Positions 216-24,599 of a stretch of DNA of 24,654 bases are shown piece by piece. Position 1 is the first letter of the stretch; every line of letters begins with the position of its first letter. The translations under genes and the position numbers were made by a program. This DNA comes from a virus. Where the stretch lies: the UHGV virus genome UHGV-1451352. The stretch is one strand, 5' to 3'. Below the pieces are notes generated by a model, which saw only the letters and a program-made list of their open reading frames with translations, was not told the origin of the DNA and ran no database searches.

Positions 216-1373
216 ATGCTCACCGTTAAGCAGATTGAAGCAGCAAAGCCGAAAGAAAAACCATACCGCCTTCTCGATGGTAATGGCCTGTACCTTTATG
301 TTCCTGTATCCGGGAAAAAGGTATGGCAGCTTCGCTACAAGATTGACGGTAAGGAGAAAATCCTGACCGTCGGAAAATATCCGCTTATGACTTTGCAGGA
401 AGCAAGGGATAAGGCATGGACTGCGAGGAAAGACATCTCGGTTGGCATCGATCCGGTAAAGGCGAAAAAGGCTTCGTCTAACAACAATTCATTTAGTGCG
501 ATTTACAAGGAATGGTACGAGCACAAGAAGCAAGTCTGGTCAGTAGGCTATGCAACTGAACTTGCCAAAATGTTTGATGACGACATTTTACCCATCATCG
601 GCGGTCTTGAGATTCAGGATATTGAGCCGATGCAACTGCTGGAAGTAATCCGCAGATTTGAAGATCGCGGTGCAATGGAGCGAGCCAACAAAGCCCGCAG
701 AAGATGCGGCGAGGTTTTTCGTTACGCTATTGTCACCGGAAGGGCTAAATATAACCCGGCACCTGACCTTGCAGACGCCATGAAAGGATACCGCAAGAAG
801 AACTTCCCGTTCCTTCCAGCAGACCAGATGCCTGCATTCAACAAAGCACTGGCAACATTTTCAGGAAGTATCGTATCGCTCATTGCGACCAAAGTTTTAC
901 GCTACACAGCCCTAAGAACGAAAGAGCTTCGTTCCATGCTATGGAAGAACGTCGATTTTGAAAACAGGATTATCACCATCGACGCCAGTGTGATGAAGGG
1001 ACGCAAAATTCATGTGGTCCCGATGTCAGACCAGGTGGTTGAACTTCTCACTACGCTAAGCTCCATCACCAAACCAGTATCAGAGTTTGTTTTTGCCGGA
1101 CGCAACGATAAGAAGAAGCCAATCTGCGAGAACGCGGTATTGCTTGTGATCAAACAAATCGGCTATGAAGGTCTGGAAAGCGGTCACGGATTCAGGCATG
1201 AATTCAGCACGATTATGAACGAGCACGAATGGCCTGCTGACGCTATTGAAGTGCAGCTGGCACATGCCAACGGCGGATCTGTGCGCGGTATTTACAACCA
1301 TGCTCAGTATCTCGATAAGCGCAGGGAGATGATGCAGTGGTGGGCGGACTGGCTTGATGAAAAGGTGGAGTGA
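216..1373 (+). CDS. int: P4-type tyrosine integrase (IntS-like, 385 aa)
   Basis: ORF 180..1373. N-terminal DUF4102-like region (LTVKQIEAAKPKEKPYRLLDGNGLYLYVPVSGKKVWQLRYKIDG) and C-terminal catalytic region (HGFRHEF ... RGIYNHAQY). Lies immediately 3' of the tRNA fragment. The ATG at 216 (MLTVKQ) gives the family-typical N-terminus; the GTG at 180 is the alternative start. Confidence 0.9.
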   Translation: MLTVKQIEAAKPKEKPYRLLDGNGLYLYVPVSGKKVWQLRYKIDGKEKILTVGKYPLMTLQEARDKAWTARKDISVGIDPVKAKKASSNNNSFSAIYKEWYEHKKQVWSVGYATELAKMFDDDILPIIGGLEIQDIEPMQLLEVIRRFEDRGAMERANKARRRCGEVFRYAIVTGRAKYNPAPDLADAMKGYRKKNFPFLPADQMPAFNKALATFSGSIVSLIATKVLRYTALRTKELRSMLWKNVDFENRIITIDASVMKGRKIHVVPMSDQVVELLTTLSSITKPVSEFVFAGRNDKKKPICENAVLLVIKQIGYEGLESGHGFRHEFSTIMNEHEWPADAIEVQLAHANGGSVRGIYNHAQYLDKRREMMQWWADWLDEKVE

Positions 1374-10792: not shown

Positions 10793-11493
10793 CAGTCAAT
10801 CAACCCATGAGTCCGTAATGCATCTTCCAGAGCTTTGATACGCTGCCGCGCCTGCTGCAATCCTGTAGCCATAGCCGACACCTCAGACCGTGTGTATGTG
10901 GCACTTACCGTGTATGTCTGGTTAGCGTTGAATGAGCCGCGAAGAGCCGTACCTGTAGCCGCTGTCCACCCTGTCTGACGAGCACCAATAACCTTGGTGC
11001 CGCCGACCGAATAGGATGTTGTTACATTGAGGGGAGATGCCAGCGATTGTGTTGCAGTGGCTGTTTTCGATACATAGTCGTCCTGTAATGCAGAAATGTT
11101 GCTCTCAGCAGTCGTAACCCGGCCATCAAGAGCGCTGACGTCAGCCTGTAAAGTGACTATTTCTCCTTCAGCCGTGGTTAGTCTGACATCCAGCGCTGCA
11201 ATTGCCGCAGTATTCGCAGCAATACGGATTTCATGGTCATCTACTTCAATGCGGAGCTGACGAATTCTTTCTTCGTGATCGACCAGAATCACATCCTGCT
11301 CATCGTTCCTGACTTGTGCGTCATAAGCACCATGTCCGGCCTCGTTGGCCTTGTTCGCCACGTTACCAACATCAGCACCCTGTGCAATAACGTACAGCAG
11401 ATATGACTGCGAGAAGATATTGCGTGGAAGGATTGATGTATCGAGCCGCGTCGCCTGCACAATAACAGGGGTGTTGAGATTCGAATCAGCCAT
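10792..11493 (-). CDS. Tail needle (P22 gp26-like), 233 aa
   Basis: [37 protein letters not shown] ... ALRTHGLID aligns with P22 gp26 as I recall it; central coiled-coil heptads. Confidence 0.9.
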
Positions 11494-12911
11494 TACTCAA
11501 TCCTTATCTGGCAACCAGACAGGGTGACAGGTGACTTAGTGATAACGCGCAATTTGAAGCCGACATTTTTCCTGATGCGCCCGACACGCTTCCACAAAAC
11601 GCGTTTGTCGTAAACGAACGGTTCATTCTGCTCAATCATCTGCTCACGCCCATAATTTATGCCGTCAGTGGTTGCAGAGAGGAACAGGCGGTCGGCGTAC
11701 TGAGCTACGCCAGTGGATGATTCCACCTCCAGATCGAAGCATCTGGCGTTATCCGCTTTGAACAGTGGAGTAAACAGCAGGTGTTCCTGTTGAAGCCCAT
11801 ACTGACTGCTGATATCGAACTGCAATTTCCCGGTCACCGATTCCAGCTTATCGCCGCACGTTATCTGATTTCCTTCGTAAATGAAGTCGATAGCGCGGTA
11901 CACATCGTCATACAGACCTGTTTTCAGCACACACCATTGCGGACCATTGGCACTTGAAGATGCGTCGTATACCAGGACATGGCGCGGAAGGTGGATAATC
12001 AGCAACTCATGCGCATCAAATCGCAGAGACTCCATCACGCCATCAGCCAGTTCATCAGCAGTGTAGGAGCGGAGGATTTTCTCAATGCTCGCGCTGGCGA
12101 TTGGTGAAACCTGACCGGATCCGATGATGTATACAGACGGAGCACCTGTTGCCGGATTGCTGATGAACGCATACGAATCAGCAAACGGCGTTTTGCAGTA
12201 AGTCCCGGCAATGCCTTTTTGCACCATCAGCGATGGCTGTGCGACATACAAAGCGGCACCAACGGTGGTTGCCCCAGTCAGGGAGAAATATTCAATCGTC
12301 GATGAACCAAAACAGACGATGAAATCTCGCCATGTGCCGATACCTATGATGCCGTCCGGCTGAGATTCTGCGCGATATTGAGCACTGTAACGGTCAGGGT
12401 GCGATTCGTCTTCAAGGTCAGTGATAAACCATGAATCAGTACCGTCTTTTGACCACGCATAACGCCCACGTAAGCGCGTAATGTCGCGGACTGAGCCTAA
12501 CTCATACTGCGTGAATCCGCTGTCTGTAGGCCAGTTTGAGACGGTTTTAACCGTGCCATCATAGCGATACTCGACCAGTTGACCATTAACGCCTACCGCC
12601 TGTGATGTCCGACCATGCGCCATTGATACGCGACCACTTCCGGCAACATCACCGACTTCGCTTTCGCCTTTGTAGAGCTTGCCGCCACACACACGATAGA
12701 CAGCATTCTGCGCCATGTTGTACTCGACGCCGCGAGATACACCATTCACATCAGAACGTTTGGCAATGCCCGGGAATGAGCGAAGATATCCCGATGAATT
12801 CAACACCTCCTTGGGCGTAGCTAAAAGATTGACTGGAAGTTGGTCTATATAATCAGCATTAACCGCACTTTTCCCTAATCCCTTCATTAGTGGTAGTTGT
12901 TGTATTGCCAT
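11493..12911 (-). CDS. Tail hub / head-completion protein (P22 gp10-like), 472 aa
   Basis: ORF 11493..12920, whose listed start is a TTG. The ATG at 12911 ([11 protein letters not shown]...) gives the P22 gp10 N-terminus and the same length as P22 gp10. The C-terminus ...[11 protein letters not shown] matches my recollection. Confidence 0.9.
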
Positions 12912-13443
12912 TGGAATCAACCTTTATATGAACCCAGTTAGCATCACGCTTTAGCCTACTTGCCCAGGTCTTAGATATCCCGTACTTAGCCGCAATTACT
13001 GACAAGCTTTCTTTTGATGACTTGATTGCAAGAACATCGTCATCACTCAACTTGTGTTTTGGGTGCTTGGTTCCGAAAAACTTGATTGGTTTCTTTAATC
13101 CTGTGGCGTATGCATGTTTGATGTTTTCGCTTTGAGTGCACCACTCAAGATTATTGACGTTATTATTGAGTGGATTGCCATCAATATGATTTACCTGAGG
13201 CTTGTTTTCAGGATTTGGCAGGAATGTAATTGCAACGATTCGATGGGCAAAAGTCCATTTTGCTCCGATATTATAAAGCACCCTTCCCTGATTTATTTTA
13301 GGCTTTAACCAGCGCCCCTTTCTGAGTTGCGTGCTGCCATGCGCAGCCTTAACAACACGTGAGTGAGAATACACCCTGCCATCTTCTGTTACGGCATAAA
13401 CACCTTCAAATCCAGGTATATCTTTAGCATTCTCAGAAAGCAT
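12859..13443 (-). CDS. Free-standing HNH homing endonuclease (NUMOD4-like N-terminus, HNH core, C-terminal helix-turn-helix-like region), 194 aa
   Basis: IPGFEGVYAVTEDGRVYSH (NUMOD4-like), QVNHIDGNPLNNNVNNLEWCTQSENIKHA (HNH), SDDDVLAIKS...LSVIAAKYGISKTWASRLKR (NUMOD1/HTH-like). AAGGAG ribosome-binding site; AT-rich. Inserted between gp4 and gp10, which are adjacent in P22. Its 3' end overlaps the gp10 start by 53 nt. Confidence 0.85.
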   Translation of the reverse strand: MLSENAKDIPGFEGVYAVTEDGRVYSHSRVVKAAHGSTQLRKGRWLKPKINQGRVLYNIGAKWTFAHRIVAITFLPNPENKPQVNHIDGNPLNNNVNNLEWCTQSENIKHAYATGLKKPIKFFGTKHPKHKLSDDDVLAIKSSKESLSVIAAKYGISKTWASRLKRDANWVHIKVDSNGNTTTTTNEGIREKCG

Positions 13444-13479
13444 ATCTACTCCTTAAAGTTTCGATTTTTCATGTACTTA

Positions 13480-13584
13480 TTATATCAAAATTGCCAGCAT
13501 ATTCACTGGCAGATAGTCGATATAGTCGGCGTTTCGAAAGTCTTTGCCGACACCTTTCATAAGCGGAAGTTGCTGAATCGGCAT
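13480..13584 (-). pseudogene. Orphan 5' fragment of an ancestral gp10 gene (34 codons), left by the endonuclease insertion
   Basis: My translation of the - strand from the ATG at 13584..13582 (overlapping the gp4 stop as TAATG) gives [31 protein letters not shown] followed by ILI-stop. This matches the P22 gp10 N-terminus for 31 residues, then diverges into the AT-rich endonuclease leader. Confidence 0.75.
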
Positions 13585-14084
13585 TATTCGCTCCCGTTAT
13601 CGCAAGGTTCCTTTCGGTGGAAGTAATTCCAACCGTTCCACTTCGCCAACTGGTTTCCACTGCCAACAGGCATACGGTTTGGATAACCGGACTTACATTT
13701 AGCGGCTTTTGCTCTGTCCATTGCAGACAGTTTGACGAGTCGCTCTTTCCCGTATCTGGCAGTGGTTATAAGTTTTGCTGACGCTTCCAGCGCATAATCT
13801 GGAGCAATGCGGCAGGCAAGGTTGAAAATGACGGCATTTATAGCGTTATTTGATAATCCGTGCTCATCTCCCGGATCTGGAGCGACATCTGCATCAGCAA
13901 AAATGTAGCCAACGTTGATACCAGGTGACACATCACCGCCAAGCCATTCAGCCATCATCATTTCAAGGTCGTTGACGCCATCTTCCATGGACTGCGGTTC
14001 GACATCGGTTAACGTGGCATTTGATGCCACACCGAGCTTACGTAATGCCGCAAGAACTAAATCACCCTTCGTTGTCAGGTTCAT
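13584..14084 (-). CDS. Head completion / tail accessory protein (P22 gp4-like), 166 aa
   Basis: ORF 13584..14153. From the ATG at 14084 ([33 protein letters not shown]...) it matches the P22 gp4 N-terminus and length as I recall them. Confidence 0.85.
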
Positions 14085-14292
14085 CTGCTGCCGCCTTAGG
14101 TTTTCGACCAGGCTTTTTACGCTGTTTTTCTTCTGGCTCTGGCTCTGCAACATCCTTCAGAAGATCATCAGGATGTGCAAACCAGCCAGCATCCAGATAT
14201 TCCTGAAGCTCTTCGGCTTTCACGATTTCAAAGTCGTATCCAACGCCTTTCCACTTCTTCATGTCTCCATGACGAAAGATCATGTGTGTCAT
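14062..14292 (-). CDS. Small hypothetical protein between coat and gp4 (76 aa, Lys/Glu/Pro-rich tail)
   Basis: ORF 14062..14340. The ATG at 14292 follows a GGAG ribosome-binding site and begins after the coat terminator hairpin. Overlaps the gp4 start by 23 nt (translational coupling). Confidence 0.5.
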
Positions 14293-14303
14293 GCTTGTCT
14301 CCA

Positions 14304-14328
14304 GATAAAAAAGGGAGCCGAAGCTCCC
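14304..14328 (-). terminator. Intrinsic terminator immediately downstream of the coat gene
   Basis: On the - strand RNA: GGGAGC-UUCG-GCUCCC hairpin followed by UUUUUUAUCU, starting 9 nt after the coat stop codon. Confidence 0.6.
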
Positions 14329-14336
14329 TCTGGTTA

Positions 14337-15632
14337 TCACGCGGTCTGGTTAGGCAGACCAACACCAATTGCCTCTGGTCGTACAGCACATGCTGAATAC
14401 CACACAGCAATACGGCACTTGCCAGACAGAGTGTTGATATCCCCCTGCGTTGCGAAGATGCCGTTAACACCAATACCTGGAATGCTGAAGGAAGAAGTTT
14501 TCATGCCAGCAAACAGTTCATGGGTTACCGGAATCGGCTGAGACAGCAGGCGGATTGAGTCATCAGCCCAGAACACGTTAGCGGTGGTTGTTGCCACGTT
14601 CAGAACGTTTACCGGAGTGGTATCAGCAAGAGAGGTGTTTACGTTAGCGTAAGCCTTCTCTTCTTTTGTCAGTGACGCGTCATCCAGCGCAATCGGCTTC
14701 GGCGTGATTTCGATGTGAGTACCATCTATCACACGGGTGATTGAGAAAGTCGCATCATCAGTCAGCACGTTCTTCGCCATCTGAGACAGGAATTTCACAC
14801 CAGTGAAGCTGATTTTGTCGCCGCGCTTAAATCCGGTGGTGGAGGATACGGTCACCGTTGCAACACGGTTGTCGACGTTCTCTTTGTTACCATCGGTATC
14901 AAGGGTGTATGCCTGCGGCTTAAACTTCTGCGCACCAGAAACAGTTACACCAGTAGCGGTTGACTTGGTAACTGCCGGAAGTTTCGGTGAGCGAAGAATT
15001 TCATCAAAGCCAGCAATCTGACGCTGAATAGTACCGTTACGATACGCTTCTTCAGGAACGCGCCCAAAGATGTCACCATCTACCAGGTTGCGGCCTGCTT
15101 TGCGGTAATCGTCAGGGTTCAGGAAGTAACTGATGCCCATATCGCGGTTTAGCTCACGGGAGAACATCAGGCGCTCTGCATCAGACACAAAATCCCAACC
15201 AGACAGGCCAGTAGATGGACCAATTGCGCGGGTATCGTGAACAACAAGTGAGCCCATTTCAGTTGCCTGTTTGGCAATTGCTGACTCAATGTTATTCGCC
15301 AGTTTTTTGGCGGATGCCTGGATGCGGCGACGGTAAGAACGCTCATCACGCAGATCATCTGCACGAAGCTCGAAGAAATCGTTATCCGGATCGCCCATGT
15401 TGCATTTCACGGAGAGTTCCAGAATCCCGGTTGCGTTGCCAGTTAAATCCCAGCCAGTCTGGGTTGGCGCTTCCTGCTCAACAGGCATCCACACGGTGTT
15501 GCTTGAACGCTGCATGGATTCTGCCGGAGGGGTGTATTTTGTCACTTTGGACGCCATTGGCGTCAGGTTCTGGACGGTTTCGATGATTTCATCCAGAGCA
15601 TACGTGACCAGTTGACCTTCATTTAATGCCAT
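14337..15632 (-). CDS. Major coat protein (P22 gp5-like), 431 aa
   Basis: MALNEGQ.VT.A.DEIIET ... GVGLP.QTA aligns along its length with P22 coat protein as I recall it. Confidence 0.92.
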
Positions 15633-18722: not shown

Positions 18723-20222
18723 TTAAGTTCTCCGTGCGATGGGCCTGATTGGGGCTGGTATCTTTTTCTCTTTTGGTTTTTTGATGTCGCGCATCATTTT
18801 TGCGAAGCGGCGCATCATGTATGCATAGCGAACGGCTGAGAGAACGTCGTCGTTAAGCTTGACGATTTTCCCGTTTTCATCACGGTGATAGAGGCGGAAC
18901 TCCTCAAAGAATGGCTCACAGGTGTTGAATACTTTGAAGCGACCATCGAGCATCATGTCGCGCAATTCAGTGATGCCAGGCTCAACAGCATTACCGCCAT
19001 CAGGCCATGTCGCATGCTCCTGTAACATCATAAATCCAGCGTCTGCATACTGCCCTTTGAGCTGCTCACCGCCGCCCTTCTCATGCTGGTTTCCGTCATG
19101 AGGCCATGCGGTTGGCACTTTATGCGCCCATGATTTAACAGCCCCCCATGCCTGAACAGCTGTTTTTTCTTTCGCCTTCCACACGCGTGAAACGTAGATT
19201 GTGTCTGCGTCCTTATCCCACCAAAGCTGAACCTGAGCCTGTGGGTGATCCCATCCGAAATCCATCCCGCCAATCACGTAGAAGTGATCAGGACACTCGA
19301 ACGGCTGACACTTAATAGTCTCTTCCGGTATCTGGAAGATTCGACCACTACCCATCGTAGGAATACCGCGAGCACGCGCCTCTCTCTCATGCTCAGGATA
19401 AGATGCGATGATTTGCTCTTTCTGTTCGTCTGTGTAGTGCTCAGCGTCGTAGATGGTCATGTTGACCACTTTCTGCGACTTGCTGGGATTCTTCAGGAAC
19501 TTGGTAACAACGTCAGACATCCCCATCAGCGGGGTAAACGTCAGAATTGAGAATTGACCGTATTTGTTGGTACGGGTAAGACCTTCGCCATAAATGCTGT
19601 ATGGTGGCTCTTCGTCAAACCACACGCCGTGGATTGTGTCACCCTGCCAGCGAGCACGGCCTTGCGAGTATGGTTTGAAGTAGCAGATTGAAATGCCATC
19701 TTCAACGCCATCAGCCGTGTGATGCTTAACCAGAAGGTGATCAACAAGGTTCGGAAAGAAAGGAGACTTCTTCCAGCTAATGATGTCATCTTTCGGTATT
19801 GAACCGTAGCCCGGTTCATCATTCTCTTCAATACGACCGCACAGGATGCGTTGAGTCGTTTTGGTTACCGTCTCGTTTGTCTCGCCGCCAATCCAGAAGA
19901 CAACAGGCTCATAGAAACGCCTACCTTTCCACTCACCGCCATATTTACCATCAGCAGGATAGCCTTTTGTGCCCGGATAACGCCCGGTAAGGTGAAACGC
20001 GACTTCAGCAGCACCAGTAAATGACTTACCAATCTGGTTACCAGCCATAAAACAGCGCTCTGGATAGTCATGCCCGGCGTCGATGAACTCACGCTGTTTG
20101 CTGTATGGCGTAAATTCATATAGCAGGTGTGTGTTCCGGTAGTTCTCTTCTTCTTCGAGTAGCTCGAGCAATTCGATTTGCTCTTCGTCGCTCAGGTTAT
20201 CAAGAATCGCGTCCAGTTCCAC
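18723..20222 (-). CDS. Terminase large subunit (P22 gp2-like), 499 aa
   Basis: Same length as P22 gp2; N-terminal ATPase region with a Walker A-like GNQIGKS motif; start overlaps the small terminase 3' end. Confidence 0.9.
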
Positions 20223-20688
20223 GGTTGAATAGCTCCTTGATACGAGAGCGTCGCTTATCGCGATCTCCCTTATCAGGTGTCACGTCTTCAACTTGCGACT
20301 GCTCTTTGAGGCCCAAATCACGGGCGATGATGTTAGCGTTGAGAAGGTCAGCGGCTGCGCCAGAGAATTTCTGGTCGTAGATGACCTGCTCTGCTCGCGT
20401 AACGACTTCAGATAAATCTTCTCGCAGGCGATATGTGCGCCATGTTTCAAGCGTCACATCAATGAAAAGAGTGAGGCCTGTAATGGTCATCGCTCGCATC
20501 TTGGCGATAGGCTCTTGTATCACTTCACCCTGATACGAGAACGCCTTCATCTCCCATAGCGGGTTAGCTTCCACCCACTCGAAGTATTCACAACAAGCAG
20601 CCCACAGCGCCTCAGGCGATTCGAATTTAGGATTTCGCCCATGACTACTGCGGGCCTCCCAAAATCGGTTGCCCTTTGGTGCTGCCAT
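20200..20688 (-). CDS. Terminase small subunit (P22 gp3-like), 162 aa
   Basis: Same length as P22 gp3; contains the pac sequence within its coding region. Confidence 0.9.
20400..20421 (-). other. pac site (headful packaging initiation) inside the small terminase gene
   Basis: The - strand reads GAAGATTTATCTGAAGTCGTTA, which matches the 22-bp P22 pac site as I remember it, within 1-2 positions. It encodes ...EDLSEVVT... of the small terminase. Confidence 0.65.
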
Positions 20689-23672: not shown

Positions 23673-23780
23673 AGGCCTCACCTCCGATTTTTCGGATGGC
23701 GCTGTGTGTGTATGAAAAGGATCAGGCTTCACTGGCTGGATTTTCAACAAAGCACGTAGTGATTGATTCCCGTGAGCCTG

Positions 23781-23805
23781 AAATAAAAAACCCGCTCAAG
23801 GCGGG
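23781..23805 (-). terminator. Intrinsic terminator between the tRNA pair and the holin (tR'-like position)
   Basis: On the - strand RNA: CCCGC-CUUGA-GCGGG hairpin followed by UUUUUUAUUU. Confidence 0.65.
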
Positions 23806-23861
23806 AATGTTAGGGTGTGGCAATGTCAGCTCTGCGGCTGAAGATACCCTGGCTGGGTTTT

Positions 23862-23937
23862 TGGTGCCGGTTAACGGATTTGAACCGCTACCTATTCACT
23901 TACAAGGCGACCGCTCTACCATTGGAGCTAAACCAGC
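23862..23937 (-). tRNA. Predicted tRNA-Thr (anticodon TGT), 76 nt
   Basis: Cloverleaf folded by hand: acceptor GCTGGTT/AACCGGC (one G-U), D-arm GCTC-CAATGGTA-GAGC, anticodon arm GTCGC-CTTGTAA-GTGAA (4 of 5 pairs), variable TAGGT, T-arm AGCGG-TTCAAAT-CCGTT, discriminator A, encoded CCA. Confidence 0.65.
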
Positions 23938-23942
23938 ATGTT

Positions 23943-24017
23943 TGGCGGGACAGCGTGGACTCGAACCACGATAAGAAGGTTAACAGCCTTCCGTAATGAC
24001 CTTTATACGACTGACCC
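23943..24017 (-). tRNA. Predicted tRNA-Asn (anticodon GTT), 75 nt
   Basis: Cloverleaf folded by hand: acceptor GGGTCAG/CTGTCCC (one T-T mismatch), 3-bp D-stem, anticodon arm GAAGG-CTGTTAA-CCTTC (perfect), T-arm CGTGG-TTCGAGT-CCACG, discriminator G, encoded CCA. Five nt from the tRNA-Thr. Confidence 0.6.
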
Positions 24018-24080
24018 AAATAAAAAAAGCCACCGTTGCAACTTAAGAGTCACTAACGGCAGCTTACCCTCTAATTATGG

Positions 24081-24599
24081 CTAAATGGCTAATTGCATGT
24101 CAAGGCTTTTAACAGCAACATGCTTAACTTTCTCAACACGTTTACGCATTTTGAAAGCATTTTGCATTGGCTGGTATAAAACAAATAATGACGCTTTCAG
24201 GATGTCGTCAATTTCGTTTCTACAGGTTGCCAGTGAAGGTTTTCTCCATCCCTCGCCACCACGTCCACACATCTTGCGTGGCTTTGCAGTCGCGTGATAG
24301 TAGGATGCAATTGCTCGCTTAGATGAACCATGAGCGTAGTAGCTGAGGAGGATGCCAAAGGCTTTCTTGTCAATGTACATGACGGAATCGACGACCTGAG
24401 AAATCAACATTCCATCATCATCATTACACATTGGCCTTGTCATAATTCTTCCCGGCTCTACGCTCTCCATGAACTTCGCTATTACGCTGCTCATGCGCTT
24501 TTCCAGACGACCTGAATAAACCCATGCGCCCCACAGTTCAAGCCAGCCATTCAGCCACTCGTGCTGCTCTTTGGTGAGGTTTAGTTCTCTTATGCCCAC
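24081..24599 (-). CDS. Late-gene antiterminator Q (QuuD/phage-82-type Q family), 172 aa from a GTG start
   Basis: LELWGAWV and RPMCNDDDGML motifs are typical of this Q family as I recall it. Start codon at 24599 is GTG with a GGAG-containing ribosome-binding site. The frame stays open upstream to the window edge (24654), so the true start could lie outside the window. Confidence 0.75.
   Translation of the reverse strand: MGIRELNLTKEQHEWLNGWLELWGAWVYSGRLEKRMSSVIAKFMESVEPGRIMTRPMCNDDDGMLISQVVDSVMYIDKKAFGILLSYYAHGSSKRAIASYYHATAKPRKMCGRGGEGWRKPSLATCRNEIDDILKASLFVLYQPMQNAFKMRKRVEKVKHVAVKSLDMQLAI

Follow-up and report, generated by a model that had tools for sequence, protein, structure and literature searches.

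How can a homing endonuclease gene occupy an essential structural gene of a phage and leave that gene working? The question is raised by UHGV virus genome UHGV-1451352, a 24,654-nt stretch of DNA (hereafter the window, meaning the stretch at its full length) that contains the late region of a P22-like prophage. In the usual view, homing endonuclease genes persist in essential genes only under cover of an intron or intein, whereas free-standing ones lie between genes and cut at a distance. In the window, a gene for a 194-aa HNH endonuclease is accompanied by two versions of the 5' end of gp10, the gene encoding a tail-hub protein, and a sequence-only reading had interpreted this arrangement as a homing endonuclease inserted between gp4 and gp10 with a duplicated gp10 5' end as the insertion scar. 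The comparisons described here make it likely that the gene is a free-standing homing gene of the I-HmuI-like HNH type, residing in a 701-bp cassette inside gp10 of P22-like phages. The host gene stays functional without an intron or intein, the cassette bringing recoded nt 1-120 of gp10 with its own start signals.

Results

Structure of the gp10 locus

The genes of the locus all lie on the minus strand in the order gp4, a 92-nt orphan 5' end of gp10 (copy A), a 49-nt AT-rich leader, the HNH gene and a complete gp10 (Table 1). The limits of the cassette were placed at the homology break points in alignments with the insert-free phages Louie, IME10 and HZ41. The net length difference between occupied and empty sites was 673 bp, in agreement with BLAST geometry. 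As previously read from the sequence, the gp4 stop codon overlaps an ATG (TAATG at 13586..13582 on the minus strand) which opens a 34-codon frame (13584..13480) ending at TAA TAA in the leader. The frame was confirmed as the gp10 N-terminus, matching by itself positions 1-28 of the Pfam Phage_stabilise model with an E value of 7e-11. Copy A was identical to the gp10 of the empty-site phage Louie at 90 of 92 nt, and homology stopped at 13493 (..CTGGC/AATTTTG). The insert is therefore located within gp10, after nt 92, and not between gp4 and gp10 as had been proposed.

The functional gp10 downstream (12911..11493) covers positions 1-469 of the 469 in Phage_stabilise with an E value of 1e-297. 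Its 5' end had been described as a diverged, AT-rich second copy of about 35 codons; the second copy (copy B) was borne out, although the recoded part is longer and spans nt 1-120 (12911..12792). The duplication reflects real homology, since copy A differs from Louie gp10 at 2 of 92 nt and copy B agrees with copy A at 59 of 92 nt. Copy B differed from Louie at 46 of 120 nt, and its 40 codons comprised 10 identical, 22 synonymous and 8 non-synonymous ones, with a G+C content at third positions of 35% versus 57.5% for Louie. Identity of the functional gene to Louie was about 62-67% over nt 1-120 and 93% from nt 121, the jump at nt 121 (GGATATCTTCGC, 12791) being sharp. Copy B was 61-68% identical to every resident type tested, and a blastn search of phages for the source of its DNA returned, apart from Salmonella phage UPF_BP1, only a 70% match to CUS-3. 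The longest identical run shared by copies A and B was 5 nt in the window and at most 5-8 nt in every lineage. A designed recoding was considered and rejected, the spacing of differences between orphan and copy B being not convincingly more even than chance (P 0.04-0.79, five lineages). A natural pair of distant gp10 genes, those of Louie and Proteus phage Brookers, showed 61% identity with a longest run of 9.

The open reading frame (ORF) of the HNH gene overlaps the functional gp10 by 53 nt (12911..12859), the extent read earlier. The Shine-Dalgarno-like AAAGG serving gp10 sits inside the HNH 3' end (within TAAAGG, 12926..12921), an arrangement found in every lineage, and copy B and the HNH gene diverge in step from one lineage to the next.

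Table 1. Coordinates of the features discussed, in positions of the window, with the evidence for each.
Feature	Position	Strand	Basis or remark
Mobile cassette (leader, HNH gene and recoded gp10 nt 1-120)	12792..13492	minus	701 bp, delimited by comparison
Copy A, the orphaned 5' end of gp10 (nt 1-92, resident type)	13493..13584	minus	ORF continues to 13480 (34 aa)
HNH homing endonuclease gene, 194 aa	12859..13443	minus	Pfam NUMOD4 and HNH_3; PHROG 59; PADLOC 'HEase'
Recoded gp10 nt 1-120 (copy B), cassette-borne, opening the functional gp10	12792..12911	minus	alignment to Louie
Rest of functional gp10 (nt 121-1419), resident type, right homology arm	11493..12791	minus	identity to Louie
Translation-initiation leader, AATCGAAAC (13466..13458) and Shine-Dalgarno AAGGAG (13454..13449)	13449..13466	minus	conserved
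TGATATAAT, perfect extended -10 (TGnTATAAT) at the cassette left end	13479..13487	minus	conservation between lineages
Terminator-like hairpin TGCCAG-N8-CTGGCA, then ATTTTGATAT, at the left junction	13492..13511	minus	scan call
gp4 (head-tail adaptor)	13584..14153	minus	Pfam P22_Tail-4, E 2e-58; PHROG 637
Hexanucleotide repeat GCCAGA (coding strand)	14132..14147	minus	2.7 copies

The encoded endonuclease

The 194-aa protein had been assigned NUMOD4 and HNH domains. Both were detected with Pfam, NUMOD4 with an E value of 1.3e-8 (35.4 bits against a cut-off of 23.4) and HNH_3 with an E value of 3.8e-10 (39.7 bits against 24.8). The additional NUMOD1 domain looked for was not detected by Pfam, and a C-terminal helix-turn-helix (HTH) is visible only in the structure model. 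The protein matched PHROG 59, 'HNH endonuclease' (E 1e-52), and no NCBIfam model. The AlphaFold2 model (pLDDT 84.9), with beta strands at residues 16-65, gives the domain order of a NUMOD4 beta-sheet domain, an HNH_3 catalytic domain, a C-terminal three-helix (HTH-like) domain and a disordered tail of residues 178-194. That tail is encoded in the overlap with gp10, and its predicted disorder makes the overlap look more like reading on into the neighbouring gene than like a functional domain.

The core of the protein aligned to the DH..N..N core of I-HmuI, and residues N85, H86, N98 and N107 were invariant in 38 homologues. A sequence search of the PDB returned I-HmuI (1U3E) as the sole relative (E 4e-9). 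Likewise, a Foldseek search of the PDB gave 1u3e_M as the sole match at E<=0.001 (E 1.7e-6, probability 1.00, a full-length alignment of 190 columns, TM 0.46-0.50), all others having E values of at least 0.2, among them weak matches to resolvase HTH domains that fit the C-terminal helices. By family, the protein is an HNH homing endonuclease of the I-HmuI type (NUMOD4 plus HNH_3), with predicted cleavage activity. It shares with I-HmuI of Bacillus phage SPO1 the N-terminal beta-sheet DNA-binding domain, HNH core, helical linker and C-terminal HTH; however, I-HmuI is a strand-specific nickase that lies in a self-splicing group I intron, whereas the cassette protein is only ~26% identical and no intron is detectable at its locus.

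Leader and expression signals

The AT-rich leader followed by AAGGAG, 5 nt before the ATG of the 194-aa ORF, was found as had been reported. The leader was the best-conserved segment between lineages, with 78-92% nt identity versus 70-81% for the HNH gene, and the elements kept across lineages were TG(A/C)TATAAT, AATCGAAAC and GGAGTAGATATG. The sequence TGATATAAT is the only match to the extended -10 consensus (TGNTATAAT) in the window, and TG(A/C)TATAAT was kept in 6 of 6 cassette loci compared, representing five HNH lineages. From its conservation only, the extended -10 is likely a candidate promoter of the HNH gene's own, and the ribosome-binding site is a strong one. The predicted fold of the leader RNA was not unusual (z -1.7). 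The hairpin called at the left junction lies directly 5' of the extended -10, and its stem pre-exists in the empty gp10 (GCCAG..CTGGC); because the stem is not conserved in lineage L090, the hairpin is probably incidental.

Diverged lineages of the cassette

A large protein database contained HNH relatives with 83, 82, 71 and 69% aa identity (P0002-P0005). All of these lineages, found on contigs of distant P22-like phages, showed the same layout of gp4, orphan, leader, HNH gene and overlapping full-length gp10, and in all of them the HNH ORF was intact and the catalytic residues unchanged. Among cultured phages, those nearest to lineages L092 and L094 were Proteus phage Brookers, and Salmonella phage MS2 LVA together with the APSE phages. 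The orphan was present and open in all cassette loci examined and in each case matched the local resident type of gp10. Thus the orphan of UPF_BP1 is of the P22 type (MPIQQLPMMKGMGKDFKNADYIDY..), that of the window is of the E. coli type, and that of L094 (MPQVKIPLARGLRKDPHTADYIDGL) is the gp10 N-terminus of phage MS2 LVA, to which the gp4 of L094 is 90-100% identical. Because it always matches the local resident type, the orphan behaves as a left recombination arm, and we propose that it may serve as the left homology arm for homing.

These results modify the earlier view of the orphan as an insertion scar. It is a displaced resident 5' end, as had been supposed, but not the scar of a single recent event, since the layout with local-type orphans is kept in four HNH lineages that are 69-83% identical; the design of the cassette is therefore old. 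A donor lineage with the HNH gene and without the orphan was not found, every HNH relative of at least 69% identity having an orphan, and an alignment scan for the HNH gene in 100,044 species-representative genomes gave no relative. The gp10 of the Proteus- and MS2 LVA-like lineages (L094 5560..7353; L097 1478..3259) has 593-597 aa and that of phages of E. coli and Salmonella 472 aa, the difference being a C-terminal extension of ~120 aa in the tail-hub protein.

Distribution and polymorphism

The cassette was present in 18 of 5,426 complete E. coli genomes. Close relatives were mostly insert-free, as expected of a mobile insertion: among 915 of these genomes with a P22-like gp10, 885 had an intact, uninterrupted 5' end and 18 (~2%) were occupied. 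Of 123 matching phage records, all were insert-free except the two (GenBank and RefSeq) of Salmonella phage UPF_BP1; E. coli MS 115-1, NZ_CP146665, is one sequenced carrier strain. A supposed second place in Salmonella phage NM-3 proved to be an ordinary single gp10. IMG/VR contributed 28 carrier contigs, and the left junction was identical in 28 of 28 IMG/VR loci and in UPF_BP1.

The pattern of co-conversion anticipated from the sequence was evident as a near-invariant cassette in mosaic flanks, a low-diversity island like that left by a selective sweep; its limits coincide exactly with the junction of orphan and leader and with nt 120 of gp10. Across 23 distinct carrier sequences, the density of polymorphic sites was 0.03 for both the HNH gene and copy B and 0.04 for the leader, compared with 0.25 for the orphan, 0.94 for the final 16 nt of gp4 and 0.22 for nt 121-312 of gp10. 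Polymorphism thus falls ~7-fold at the cassette edges and resumes at 12774, with which the profile of nucleotide diversity (pi) agrees. When the 28 loci were clustered at identities of at least 97%, the cassette formed 1 cluster, upstream gp4 4-6 (pi 0.18-0.37 among carriers) and gp26 10. The window and UPF_BP1 showed 8 differences over the 701 bp of the cassette and 102 over the downstream gp10; the orphans had 15, every one of them within gp10 nt 13-61, and the gp4 genes were essentially different alleles. L090 and L091 likewise share one cassette, with 4 differences, although their gp4 backgrounds are not the same and their orphans differ slightly. These comparisons mark a recombination boundary in the P22 virion module, which helps explain the mosaic joints at gp4/gp10.

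Decayed copies of the HNH gene were also encountered, with a frameshift in E. coli ES5 (NZ_CP133871.1) and as the truncated protein clusters P0006 (140 aa) and P0007 (108 aa), annotated 'hypothetical protein' and 'NUMOD4 domain-containing protein'. They are consistent with the decay phase of the life cycle of a homing element.

Inferred target site

Three independent clues converge on gp10 nt ~88-93 as the probable cleavage target. The first is the point of insertion, which falls behind nt 92 in 4 of 5 lineages. At codons 30-31, all 6 of the empty sites compared, from E. coli, Salmonella and Proteus phages, read AAY-ATG-YTG-GC, whereas the cassette copies of all 5 lineages read AAT-(CTT/TGC/CTG)-TTA-GC. 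In the cassette Met30 is thus replaced by Leu or Cys and the Leu31 codon by TTA; in the window copy B reads AAT-CTT-TTA-GC at 12830..12820, and the changes are predicted to confer immunity. The truncation of the orphan at nt 92 together with the changed codons 30-31 suggests a target altered in carriers, in which cleavage would be blocked.

The remaining clue is a single, HNH-less gp10 in E. coli AVS0578 (NZ_CP124374.1; L126 1450..1630), without an orphan. The gene is of resident type over nt 1-57, identical to copy B over nt ~58-120 and of resident type beyond, so that the exchanged tract is centred on nt ~89. The chimera is the product that would be expected from break repair without capture of the HNH gene, or from loss of the cassette by repeat exchange leaving an immune allele. 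An exact-pattern scan of IMG/VR gave no further HNH-less chimeras. The results lead to a predicted recognition core of AAY-ATG-YTG-GC (gp10 nt 85-95), for which copy B and the AVS0578 chimera would be natural resistant alleles.

Related HNH genes at other sites

A second HNH gene, encoding 181 aa and 55% identical, lies between gp10 and gp26 in phage HZ41 (L002 2857..3402), in L036 (3001..3546) and in ~17 E. coli genomes. It resembles the gene in the window in that the first 47 aa are nearly identical, the leader from AATCGAAAC to GGAGTAGATATG is common to both, presence is variable and a diverged AT-rich gp10 end is nearby. It differs in being truly intergenic, in that the diverged gp10 end is the 3' end, and in having neither an orphan fragment nor the extended -10, which is absent from its leader. 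The comparison suggests an endonuclease family with a common N-terminal module and translation leader whose members target different ends of gp10. Three IMG/VR prophages (L024, L030 and L031; leader motifs at 2977 and 4950) carry both HNH genes bracketing gp10, resembling the 'HEG islands' (homing endonuclease gene islands) described around essential genes of ICP1-like phages (PMC10448857). More distant relatives (46-48% identity) were found at a third site, between the Q antiterminator and holin genes, in the P22-like and lambdoid phages N7 (L007 2501..3022), 29485 (L008 1407..1925) and ST-35 (L006); the corresponding interval of the window (~23750..24081) is empty.

The gp4 gene and its surroundings

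The window encodes an integrase, tailspike, ejection proteins, gp26, gp10, gp4, coat, scaffold, portal, terminase, lysis genes and Q. At its longest the gp4 ORF has 189 codons, but the Pfam match does not begin until residue 25, and the annotated proteins of relatives open with MNLTTKGD and have 166 aa. M24, at 14084, is probably the true start, from which gp4 would overlap an upstream 92-aa ORF (14062..14340). In the small ORF that precedes gp4, the GCCAGA repeat is read as a terminal (PE)n, whereas the gp4 ORF reads it as (SQ)n in its upstream extension. Phage HZ41 (L002 ~830..870) has several more copies, their number uncounted. The repeat is a length-variable microsatellite in overlapping frames.

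Discussion

The likely interpretation of the locus as a homing cassette implies the following steps. The enzyme would recognise, and then nick or cut, a cassette-free gp10 near nt 88-93 (AAY-ATG-YTG-GC), and the break would be repaired from a genome that bears the cassette, that of a prophage in the same cell or of a co-infecting phage. To the left of the break, pairing would be with gp10 nt 1-92 in the orphan, where homology is near-perfect; to the right it would be with the part of gp10 that begins at nt ~121, so that synthesis between both arms would copy the leader, HNH gene and copy B together. Carriers would be immune, the site being split in the orphan and rewritten in copy B (M30 to L or C, Leu31 to TTA). 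Expression of gp10 would be restored by the Shine-Dalgarno-like element within the HNH 3' end. Efficient RecA-type exchange needs an identical stretch of ~25 bp. Because the identical runs shared by copies A and B (at most 5-8 nt) fall far below this length, the two copies would hardly recombine, and both deletion of the cassette between the repeats and HNH-less repair from copy B would be rare, in keeping with the single chimera. The orphan would be the effective left arm, since gp4 is too variable and the runs shared by copy B and the orphan are too short.

Several observations weigh against this interpretation. Occupancy of ~2% is low for an efficient homing element, and the chimeric allele was found once in the 5,426 E. 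coli genomes. In L094 the left junction is at nt ~75 instead of 92 and the right edge of the exchange lies beyond gp10. The recoding of copy B may reflect just an old foreign origin, its differences being spread no more evenly than expected by chance or in natural distant pairs. As for expression, a two-hexamer promoter scan did not flag the leader, which lacks a good -35, and one occurrence of TGNTATAAT per window equals the chance expectation (0.82). In principle, a similar island could also arise if a neutral gene were carried about by the ordinary homologous recombination between mosaic P22-like phages. Finally, a search of the literature for the protein or its close relatives found no experiment, whether biochemical or genetic, on cleavage, nicking or homing.

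Some of these points would fit a passive passenger, an accessory gene ('moron') that is inactive or has some other role, that entered gp10 once by illegitimate recombination and was afterwards moved by ordinary recombination, with the orphan a neutral leftover. Low occupancy, the strong mosaicism of the virion modules shown by the gp4 diversity and the gp26 clusters, and the statistically unremarkable divergence of copies A and B would all agree with it. However, a passenger leaves unexplained the drop in polymorphism exactly at the cassette edges, the intact ORF, catalytic residues, leader and insertion point shared by lineages only 69-83% identical, the change at codons 30-31 that marks each of the cassette copies but none of the empty sites, and the HNH-less AVS0578 allele, which carries just the recoded tract around the junction; this explanation is considered unlikely. 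Somewhat less improbable, though still doubtful, is that the enzyme is primarily a weapon serving the prophage or host in exclusion or competition, expressed in the lysogen from its own sigma-70 promoter and cutting gp10 of superinfecting cassette-free phages, with spread as a by-product. The conserved extended -10 lies directly upstream and is independent of the late operon, the target is essential and conserved (gp10 nt 1-400 is 90-97% identical in the 885 E. coli genomes), and PADLOC lists a homing-endonuclease model among defence-associated proteins. Enzymes of the I-HmuI type are also said, after Goodrich-Blair & Shub 1996, to favour their own phage in mixed infections. Against this, the promoter is a consensus match only; moreover, a weapon is compatible with homing, and the HNH-less converted allele and the co-conversion edges show that repair from a carrier happens.

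The other explanations have far lower probability. A packaging-associated HNH protein, acting as a terminase helper as in cos phages, would suit a gene in the late/structural operon, but the terminase genes are ~5 kb away (18723..20688), the gene is absent from ~98% of relatives and its NUMOD4, HNH_3 and HTH architecture is that of I-HmuI; in addition, P22-like phages package by headful, and this role is very improbable. That the endonuclease is borne by an intron or intein and spliced out at the RNA or protein level is scarcely credible. Orphan nt 1-92 joined to copy B from nt 93 onward would indeed be in frame, and I-HmuI itself is intron-encoded. Yet there was no Rfam match, whether to a group I or II intron or to another structured RNA, at E<=1 on either strand of 12600..13800, the non-coding sequence is confined to 49 nt upstream and ~39 nt downstream of the ORF and falls far short of a group I core, and a complete gp10 with its own ATG and Shine-Dalgarno sequence lies downstream; an intein is excluded because the orphan frame stops in the leader and the HNH gene has its own Shine-Dalgarno sequence and ATG. 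The window is the IMG/VR metagenome contig UViG_3300045988_114786, for which a chimeric assembly might be suspected, but independent assemblies exclude such an artefact: 18 E. coli chromosomes, all complete, share the arrangement with 27 further contigs and the genome of one isolated phage. An artefact is given next to no weight.

The homing cassette can be compared with documented mobile endonuclease genes. Free-standing phage endonucleases are as a rule encoded in intergenic positions and cleave at a distance of hundreds to thousands of bp from there (PMC2988022). SegF, SegB and MobE of phage T4 ('intronless homing') are, like the gene described here, free-standing and variably present, with co-converted flanking markers and self-protection by target differences (PMC2988022). 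The cassette differs from them in that it sits within the target gene, at or a few nt from the inferred site, as intron endonucleases do, and in that it compensates with a replacement 5' gene end and leaves an orphan. The nearest documented analogue is in fungal mitochondria, where C-terminal duplications of atp6 and cob are flanked by free-standing GIY-YIG/LAGLIDADG ORFs (PMC6279837). There too a mobile endonuclease ORF accompanies a partial duplicate of one gene end, with an intact copy beside an orphaned fragment; the fungal cases differ in involving 3' ends, organelle genomes and other enzyme families, whereas the cassette involves the 5' end of a phage structural gene, translation signals within the endonuclease gene and a conserved promoter-like leader. 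The Allomyces atp6 gene is reportedly, after Paquin et al. 1994, the classic example of endonuclease-linked gene-end duplication. No account of this element or design came to light in a search of the literature on P22-like phages; the HNH genes that it turned up, among them the epsilon34 gene 31 fusion, were all unrelated.

The results also call for caution in annotation, since pipelines label the orphan a pseudogene and the gp10 of UPF_BP1 has been given a later start. In RefSeq the gene is already labelled 'HNH endonuclease' and the orphan an incomplete gp10, termed 'packaged DNA stabilization protein, incomplete' by PGAP (L005 3917..4009). In the GenBank record of UPF_BP1 (L001 2283..3593) gp10 is annotated from a later ATG as 1311 nt instead of 1419, and the orphan is unannotated.

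Because the layout is kept down to 69% aa identity between HNH lineages, the arrangement appears to be a working design rather than an accident. It may be suggested, tentatively and as the less probable case, that the cassette represents an 'end-replacement' element, a third way into an essential phage gene besides introns and inteins, in which the orphan would act as a built-in arm, so that no repair event could avoid copying the nuclease gene, and the enzyme, perhaps expressed from the prophage by a sigma-70-type promoter of its own, would attack the tail-hub gene of superinfecting P22-like phages and convert the survivors. For the P22-like phages, the cassette shows a route into an essential gene that differs from introns and inteins: it resides at its inferred target inside gp10, and the damage is mended by a new 5' gene end.

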